From assembly GCA_028030915.1 (NCBI GenBank), contig GCA_028030915.1_4867.1: a stretch of 64,000 bases of DNA. One strand, given 5' to 3'. The notes under the pieces are model-generated. The model was not told the origin of the DNA and ran no database searches. It saw only the letters and a program-made list of their open reading frames with translations. Below are positions 29,808 to 30,743 of this stretch, one piece after another. Position numbers and translations under genes: made by a program. The DNA comes from a phage. How positions within the stretch are numbered: position 1 is the stretch's first letter; each line of letters begins with the position of its first letter.

Positions 29808-30743
29808 TTACTTCGGCTGCCAATAACAGTTTTCTTTATTAAAGACTTTTTCTCCATCCTTAATTTTAAGGGCGAAATTTTTATTTTCTGGCTCGCCCAT
29901 ATCAGCTAGAAAGTTTTCGTACTTAGACCAGCGTTCACAGCATGTATAGCCAGCACCACCTCCACGACGATAAGATTCGTGTTTTGTATTGATGAGTTTG
30001 GTTCTCATTGATTGCCATGCGTTGTACGATACTCGAGATCGGTATCCTTTGCCATAGCCACGTAACTCACGTTCTTTGCGAAGCTCGCAACCACAAGAGG
30101 GCGTTATACGTTGCCGCACCTGCCTCGTTTCCGAGGTTATACGATTTCCACACTCACACAACCACTCGTATGAAACGATACCGATCTTGTTAACTTTTAC
30201 TGCTCTAACTGAGGTTAATTTACCAATCGACTGACCTACAGGTATGTCGCCGGGTGGTGTTTTGCTAAAAAGTACAAAGACTGCTATACCGTTTCGACTT
30301 TCAACAAACCTGACACCGCCTTCGGCTCTCGACAGTGGATAGCGCTGCTGCCATTTTTCGATCATCTCGTTTAAATCTTTGATATTACGATAATTTTTTA
30401 ACTCATCATCAGTAAAGGAGTTTACATTATCGTAATATAACGTAAGCCAGTGGCCATTACGCCGATTGTAAGACTGTAAAGATCTGCCCGCCCAACGGCA
30501 GTTTTCCGGTGTATAATCTAACTTACTGTCGATGCGGTCAAGCGTCGTACCTTGTGGTCGAACACCCATATCTTCAAGAAAATTAGAGTAGGACTTTAAC
30601 CAGCGATCGCAGATCTTAATACCCCTTCCGCCGTAGTAAGGGTAGTTGTGATTTTTCTTATTTAGACAACGATTTAGCATTTGCCTATAACTACTGTAAG
30701 TGCGCAAATCTCTAGCCATTGCTATTTCCCATGGTGCAAACAA
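29808..30743 (-). CDS. free-standing HNH-like homing endonuclease with two tandem copies of the domain
   Basis: 311 aa; [17 protein letters not shown].RP....LDRID....Y.PENCRWA is a phage HNH-endonuclease signature; a second copy [20 protein letters not shown]...NCYW sits in the C-terminal half; flanked by hairpin terminators at 29751-29786 and 30745-30776. Confidence 0.6.
   Translation of the reverse strand: [311 protein letters not shown]

Follow-up and report, generated by a model that had tools for sequence, protein, structure and literature searches.

A probable free-standing homing endonuclease gene with two unequal modules, inserted at the end of a conserved gene in an SPN3US-like jumbo phage

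Introduction

Homing endonucleases typically join a catalytic module to DNA-binding tails, and the seg and mob genes of T4 (SegG, MobE) are free-standing homing endonuclease genes of a large lytic phage. Free-standing HNH homing endonuclease genes are also carried by lactococcal Skunavirus phages (PMC12724721). Among jumbo phages, PhiPA3 encodes the HNH endonuclease gp210 within an intron, and work on phiKZ-like jumbo phages has shown that their homing endonucleases mediate competition when phages co-infect a cell (PMC11620839). PacI is a His-less HNH enzyme (His-Me finger group 20) in which a loop Tyr takes over from the His and the metal is bound by Asp and Asn (PMC5714182, PMC4081073). It is a small homodimer that cuts an 8-bp palindrome and carries two Cys4 zinc sites per subunit (PMC5714182, PMC4081073; PDB 3M7K/3LDY).

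Here we analyse an open reading frame (ORF) in a 64,000-nt stretch of phage DNA (contig GCA_028030915.1_4867.1, hereafter the window) that an initial annotation, made from the letters of the DNA, had described as a free-standing endonuclease with two tandem HNH-like modules. The window comes from an SPN3US-like jumbo phage of the genus Seoulvirus. We read the gene as a free-standing homing endonuclease gene resident in this kind of phage and propose a homing mechanism for it; to this reading as a whole we give a probability of roughly 70%.

Results

The minus strand of the window holds an uninterrupted frame at 29808..30743, 311 codons long when counted from a TTG (ORF list). The initial annotation had taken this whole extent as the gene; the frame holds, whereas the start does not. 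MARDLRTY is the N terminus of the identical database protein P0001 (303 aa) and of all close relatives (P0002–P0005), which identifies the ATG at 30719 as the true start; the TTG at 30743 merely lengthens the ORF. The coding sequence, as delimited by the ORF list, the relatives and the dN/dS analysis, runs over 29808..30719 (minus strand) and encodes 303 aa plus a stop. No further copies of its module were found by tblastn in the 64-kb window.

Megablast with the segment 28900..31500 recovered 37 phage records, 34 of them at 90–99% identity. In 35 of these 37 Seoulvirus records the homologues of SPN3US gp040 and gp041 are adjacent, with a gap of 58 nt in SPN3US, and the endonuclease gene is absent. 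BLASTN and junction alignments against SPN3US, SPLA3 and Proteus phage 7 delimited a 991-bp insert (29811..30801, minus strand) that is absent from the 35 related phages and present in 2 of the about 37 Seoulvirus genomes, namely the window and Proteus phage 7, whose copy encodes a protein 95% identical to the endonuclease of the window. The GenBank record of Proteus phage 7 (MT679221, L001) shows no CDS over 3419..4880, leaving both the gp040 homologue and the endonuclease gene unannotated.

Both flanking genes are complete. The upstream gene, a homologue of SPN3US gp041 (30784..31443, minus strand, 219 aa; the SPN3US neighbour is annotated), matches phrog_7768 over 1–219 of 219 (E 1.8e-108), and the downstream gene, a homologue of SPN3US gp040 (29371..29733, minus strand, 120 aa), matches phrog_21355 over 1–119 of 125 (E 2e-59). 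These end-to-end profiles agree with the earlier judgement that the flanking ORFs are not two halves of one gene.

Junction alignment placed the insertion point 18 nt short of the stop codon of gp041. In the empty allele the sequence is TGG GAT / AAT GAA ACC CGC ATC TAA (WD/NETRI*), with the junction at the slash. In place of the last five codons and stop that SPN3US and SPLA3 have as NETRI*, the insert brings its own ending for gp041, TCT GAG GCT AAA ATA TAA (SEAKI*; 30784..30801, minus strand), followed by a hairpin with a T run and then by the endonuclease gene. The original last five codons and stop, AATGAAACCCGCATCTAA (NETRI*; 29792..29809, minus strand), are left orphaned beyond the endonuclease stop codon, which they overlap, and are identical to the empty-site allele. 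The terminator-like hairpin of the insert (30753..30778, minus strand), which separates the stop of gp041 from the endonuclease start, has an 11 bp stem followed by the T run and a z score of -3.8, and a native terminator-like hairpin downstream of the endonuclease gene (29763..29788, minus strand) is present also in gene-less phages. The terminators that had been noted on both sides of the gene are these two coding-strand hairpins, at 30778..30753 and 29788..29763.

An insert lying 18 nt inside the gp041 coding sequence, with the original last codons intact downstream, is also what would be seen if a self-splicing intron or other intervening sequence had entered gp041, since splicing would restore the ending ...WDNETRI*; moreover, a group I intron with a GIY-YIG ORF lies 3 kb away in thyA. 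We nevertheless regard this explanation as very improbable. Rfam intron models were silent on 29800..30820 at E up to 1 in the same scan that detected the thyA intron, the non-coding part of the insert comes to about 76 nt, an in-frame stop and a terminator of its own precede the ORF, and neither flanking gene is truncated. Group I introns follow the rule that the 5′ exon ends in U and the intron in G, and by eye no choice of junction yields both. Together, the permissive Rfam scan and the failing junctions speak against a group I intron in the insert. Comparison of the locus with its gene-less relatives thus supports what had been proposed at the outset, a free-standing rather than intron-encoded endonuclease gene that is inserted between conserved genes.

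The sequence next to the insert is altered on one side. The 27 nt of gp041 that adjoin the insert contain 9–11 mismatches to empty alleles, against 13–17 in the next 300 nt and a background of about 5%, and this patch of dense substitutions at the gp041 3′ end (30802..30843, minus strand) is a probable altered half of the target site. To the left of the insert the window and the gene-less SPLA3 differ by 0–2 mismatches per 100 nt, whereas from 30800 to about 32000 they show 3–7 differences per 100 nt and beyond 32600 the window is SPLA3-like again, which gives a diverged tract of 1.2 kb on the right side of the insert only. No donor of this right-flank tract was found in the phage collection, where nothing exceeded about 98% identity to it. 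Over 28100..34400 the window is a mosaic relative to SPLA3, near-identical at 28200..28800, at 29100..29810 and beyond 32600 and 3–8% diverged over 28800..29100 and 30800..32000; the break in identity at 29810/29811 coincides with the exact left end of the insert. Because these genomes have other mosaic patches as well, the right-flank tract may have arisen without homing, and as a possible sign of homing we take it as suggestive only.

In distant jumbo phages the corresponding site, immediately behind the gp041 homologue and a hairpin, is filled by relatives of the gene. They are 48% and 54% identical to the endonuclease of the window, a level that resembles the identity of the flanking core genes, and are carried by metagenomic jumbo-phage contigs (L004–L006, 4001..4897) and by Erwinia phage Kwan (L007) and a related contig (L008; 4001..4654). 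A hairpin equivalent to that at 30753..30778 was found in L004 and L007. The copy of Erwinia phage Kwan, 217 aa long and labelled 'putative AP2 domain protein', lacks the C-terminal module (module B, below). At a different site, flanked by thyA and the gp038 homologue, SPLA3 (L003) has a two-module paralogue that is 46% identical (1205..2116, minus strand), and within the phage collection SPLA3 is the only phage with such a paralogue beside thyA. The SPLA3 record calls it a 'restriction endonuclease' and truncates its start (1199..1966), and the adjoining gp038 homologue is annotated shorter than in SPN3US.

The same region of the window holds a split thymidylate synthase gene (25904..28089, minus strand), of which exon 1 (27274..28089) ends in CQLYQR and exon 2 lies at about 25904..26203. 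The exons are separated by a GIY-YIG/NUMOD3/I-TevI-like ORF (26346..27155), and between them Rfam also matches a group I intron at 26251..26478 (E 3e-4), with a score that falls short of the gathering threshold. This arrangement resembles the T4 td intron with I-TevI. The thyA intron is sporadic, being present in L004 and L008 and absent from L005, L007, SPN3US, SPLA3 and Proteus phage 7. The gp038 homologue of the window (28038..28976, minus strand, 312 aa, phrog_10269) gives weak N-terminal matches to MazG-like pyrophosphatase PHROGs (E 1e-4 to 9e-4).

The two halves of the endonuclease align with each other by BLASTP at 36% identity over 76 aa (E 2e-11), and a module HMM built from the relatives matches residues 7–87 (2.6e-38) and 232–301 (3.2e-24). 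The first half contains the exact signature quoted in the initial annotation, DMGVRP...LDRID....YTPENCRW, while the second deviates from it as DMGEP...LKIKD....FNKENCYW and ends with the chain 3 residues past the W. Of the claim that an HNH signature occurs twice, the relatedness of the halves and the recurrence of the motif are confirmed; the motif is complete in the N-terminal half only, and neither copy is a canonical HNH.

Module A (aa 5–88; 30456..30707, minus strand) is the complete copy, in which a helical N-terminal part precedes a beta-beta-alpha unit with D61, R62, Y69, N73, Q82 and N85. It retains every conserved position of the family consensus derived from the relatives, which opens YRSW.SM.QRC.NP....Y and closes NRR. 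AlphaFold2 modelled module A at pLDDT 90.5 and the full-length protein at pLDDT 92.6 and pTM 0.62; in the models the helical N-terminal part is followed by strands 59–62 and 74–77 and a helix at 79–84. Module B (aa 228–303; 29811..30038, minus strand) is degenerate and truncated: D61 is replaced by K, R62 by I, Y69 by F and R75 by Y, and the structural positions W, DMG, N73, C74 and W76 are kept. With the chain ending three residues past W76, the helix that follows the second strand and bears Q82 and N85 is gone. Having lost both the putative active-site residues and this helix, module B is most likely non-catalytic.

Between the modules lie a middle alpha/beta region (aa 89–165; 30225..30455, minus strand), restricted to the close jumbo-phage relatives P0002–P0005 according to the alignment and the AlphaFold2 model, and a small beta-barrel with a zinc ribbon (aa 166–222; 30054..30224, minus strand). 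The ribbon has the pattern CxC-x18-CxC, formed by C188, C190, C209 and C211 (DNA 30087..30161), and is the only Cys4 motif of the protein, in a domain separate from module A, whose conserved Cys number three (C18, C37 and C74). We propose that the zinc ribbon/barrel, the middle domain and module B may supply extended DNA recognition.

Formal profile searches gave a divided answer on whether the module is an HNH nuclease. In Pfam the protein matched no HNH-type family (HNH PF01844, HNH_3 PF13392) at E up to 1 and did not match AP2 (PF00847), and NCBIfam returned nothing relevant. Among 80 relatives, the module region gave no Pfam match to HNH, HNH_3 or AP2, with AP2 unmatched at E up to 0.01; the sole Pfam HNH match in this set falls in P0022, on a C-terminal domain apart from the module. 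All PDB chains were searched by phmmer with the protein and by hmmsearch with the family profile; the matches were at chance level alone, and PacI was absent at E up to 10. Foldseek with module A found nothing significant in the PDB, with PacI, Gme HNH and colicin E7 appearing solely at E above 2. The likeness of the modelled fold to His-less HNH enzymes is weak. PHROG profiles, by contrast, matched strongly: phrog_8790 ('restriction endonuclease') at 2.2e-77, phrog_374 ('HNH endonuclease') at 9e-59, and three further 'HNH endonuclease' families (phrog_3377, 2081 and 953) at 6e-47, 3e-32 and 7e-20. Each of these matches comprises two stretches, and the PHROG names are annotations, not assayed functions.

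Residue conservation was examined in 166 modules. Where a canonical HNH has its catalytic His, at the first strand's end, module A has R62 and 162 of the 166 modules have Arg; His occurs in none. Given the missing Pfam match and this Arg, module A is not a canonical HNH. Y69, in the loop between the strands, is Tyr in 154 modules and Phe in 11 degenerate copies; N73 is found in 162 of the 166, and N85 in 136 of the 143 modules long enough to include its column, and the roles we infer for these residues come from their position. Across the set R62, Y69 and N73 are nearly invariant and D61, Q82 and N85 are conserved. In the 14 degenerate modules D61 is lost in 13, Q82 and N85 are absent from all 14 and Phe stands for Y69 in 11, and nearly all of them keep N73, C74 and W76. 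The joint loss of D61, Y69, Q82 and N85 is the pattern expected if these residues formed one active site and the degenerate copies kept the fold alone, and it makes module A a probable His-less beta-beta-alpha-metal nuclease.

Several findings count against a nuclease. No Pfam or NCBIfam nuclease domain and no solved structure was matched by sequence, the canonical catalytic His is absent, the 2–11 module repeats per protein found in the family are more like DNA-binding repeats than catalytic domains, and P0022 joins the module to a canonical HNH domain, as expected of a mere DNA binder. We found no published cleavage data for the module family; a 'PacI-like' Skunavirus enzyme that was tested, itself not placed in the module family, is outside the two reported to reduce phage plating (PMC12724721), a result that also counts against cleavage. 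His-less His-Me fingers, for example SMAD MH1, are known DNA binders (PMC5714182). The module might accordingly be a DNA-binding domain of HNH descent that is nuclease-inactive, and the protein a regulator or exclusion factor on, say, a 'moron'-type insertion spread by general recombination. We consider this unlikely. The insertion is sporadic and site-specific, its target is split and diverged, and the same site is used in distant phages; many members of about 200 aa have no other domain able to be the nuclease; the polar residues D61, Y69 and N85 are conserved and jointly lost in degenerate copies; and PacI shows that a His-less Tyr site can be active (PMC4081073).

For all its great size, the module family is covered by no Pfam or NCBIfam model, and sequence comparison links it to no solved structure. 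When 1.84 billion representative proteins were searched exhaustively with the profile, 200,321 of them, each standing for a cluster at 50% identity, matched at E up to 0.001, and 86,593 did so at E up to 1e-30. The highest-scoring proteins contained 2–11 matched stretches each. With tblastn, 916 of 50,697 phage records, spread over many host genera, proved to contain the family; the genes concerned carry the labels HNH endonuclease, restriction endonuclease, AP2 domain protein or hypothetical protein. Several of these matches lie inside DNA polymerase or DNA methylase features of other phages and may be unannotated insertions. By the module HMM, the 120 best relatives divide into 79 with a single module, 36 with two and 5 with three. 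Tandem duplication, which had been called unusual, is common by this measure, with two or three modules in 41 of the 120 best relatives and multi-module proteins at the top of the 1.8-billion-protein search. Some members add a zinc ribbon and HTH or AP2-like tails to the module, and in P0057 and P0092 the AP2-like tails (by eye) fall outside it. The endonuclease gene is in these respects an ordinary representative of a huge phage family that has been little studied and usually goes by the label 'HNH endonuclease'.

Between the window and Proteus phage 7 the endonuclease gene has a dN/dS of 0.135 overall, with 0.07 in module A and 0.17 in both the middle region and module B, and a dS of 0.168 that equals the dS of the neighbouring genes. 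The low ratio and the matching dS point to purifying selection and to co-divergence with the flanks within a sub-lineage. A once-active homing endonuclease gene that became fixed in that sub-lineage, and is now decaying and kept by linkage alone with no further homing, would also have a dS equal to that of its flanks, which indicates no recent transfer between the two carrier phages. Decay would likewise account for the degenerate C-terminal module and for the complete loss of module B from the Erwinia phage Kwan relative. The terminator directly upstream and the lack of a clear promoter point the same way; scanning for sigma-70 promoters turned up nothing better than weak 9/12 matches, and these were not in excess of shuffled sequence, a result that may be irrelevant for a phage with its own RNA polymerases. 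However, the reading frame is intact, every part of the protein including module B is under purifying selection, and a truncated C-terminal 'ENCYW' module like module B recurs in unrelated members (P0009, P0010, P0021, P0048 and P0087), so that the degenerate type looks like design. We therefore hold decay to be quite improbable and keep to the reading of a homing endonuclease gene.

Discussion

On sequence the locus has the features of the homing class, that is, a precise and sporadic site, complete and separate flanks, and a split or altered target next to a diverged flank. The homing reading draws first on the distribution of the insert, found in 2 of 37 records with exact junctions and with the original last 18 nt of gp041 retained, and on the flank divergence with its one-sided mosaic tract. 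It draws further on the relatives at the same site in distant jumbo phages and the paralogue at another site in SPLA3, on the purifying selection indicated by a dN/dS of 0.135, and on a family architecture of zinc ribbon, module and HTH/AP2 tails that is typical of homing endonucleases. For the nuclease itself it leans on the conserved R62, Y69 and N73 and the joint loss of D61, Y69, Q82 and N85 in degenerate modules, on the matches to PHROGs named 'HNH endonuclease' or 'restriction endonuclease', and on the precedent of PacI, with a Tyr in the inter-strand loop and Asp/Asn metal ligands (PMC5714182, PMC4081073).

We propose that homing would begin when a carrier phage co-infects a cell with a gene-less relative. 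The endonuclease would bind the uninterrupted gp041 3′ end of the relative, at a site that we infer to read ...GAAGTCATTCGGRACTACTGGGAT^AATGAAACCCGCATCTAA... on the coding strand, and its N-terminal module would nick or cut that DNA. In the putative catalytic site of module A, D61 and N85 (or Q82) would hold the metal, R62 would stand in place of the usual His, and Y69 might act as the base or the nucleophile, as in PacI. Recombinational repair off the carrier genome would then copy the 991-bp cassette, with some of its flank, into the recipient. The carrier itself would be immune, its site being split by the insert and the right half carrying about 35% substitutions.

It is conceivable, although doubtful, that the module 'GGRGI...DMG...LDRID...Y' represents a very large branch of beta-beta-alpha-metal nucleases with Arg in place of His and a loop Tyr as in PacI, in which proteins such as this one would be single-chain pseudo-dimers, with one live and one dead module, that nick or cut an asymmetric site.

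For the window the outcome is mainly one of annotation, since it accounts for a 1-kb indel between nearly identical jumbo phages, adds a gene left unannotated in the Proteus phage 7 record and corrects the start codon. It also points to an abundant phage family that is labelled 'HNH endonuclease' though it lacks the defining His. The locus offers a convenient test case, in which the empty site is known to the base, the half-site differences are mapped and natural partners with and without the gene exist. The endonuclease gene may matter in mixed infections and in phage cocktails that use SPN3US-like phages.

The gene resembles T4 seg/mob and the Skunavirus HNH genes (PMC12724721) in its insertion at a gene end or between genes that are conserved, its sporadic occurrence among close relatives, its diverged flanks, its paralogues at other sites and its combination of catalytic and DNA-binding modules. 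It differs from them in a catalytic module that is neither GIY-YIG nor canonical HNH and in an insert that is not purely intergenic but swaps the last five codons of the upstream gene; its cleavage and homing are predicted from sequence. With PacI the module shares no detectable sequence homology, and the Foldseek comparison was not significant; PacI has two Cys4 zinc sites per subunit where module A has three conserved Cys, and it is a homodimer where the protein here joins a complete and a degenerate module in a single chain. Of four features of the PacI family that were compared, two, the zinc sites and sequence homology, disagree. By analogy, the module probably works like a PacI-type His-less HNH, a likeness in mode of action that stops short of established membership in the PacI family. 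The LDRID....Y stretch also resembles what we take to be the HNH_3 pattern, vDHid....N...NLrwvT..eN. The biological niche and the modular logic are those of I-HmuI and other HNH_3-type and HNH-AP2 phage homing endonucleases (group 2, PMC5714182), whereas the absence of any Pfam HNH_3, HNH or AP2 match, the Arg in place of the defining His and the lack of an AP2 or HTH tail set this protein apart from them. From PhiPA3 gp210, which is intron-encoded, the window gene differs in being free-standing and in its putative target gene; like gp210, it is an endonuclease gene in a phiKZ-like jumbo phage, and as gp210 can act on co-infecting relatives, the likeness suggests a competitive role for the gene described here.
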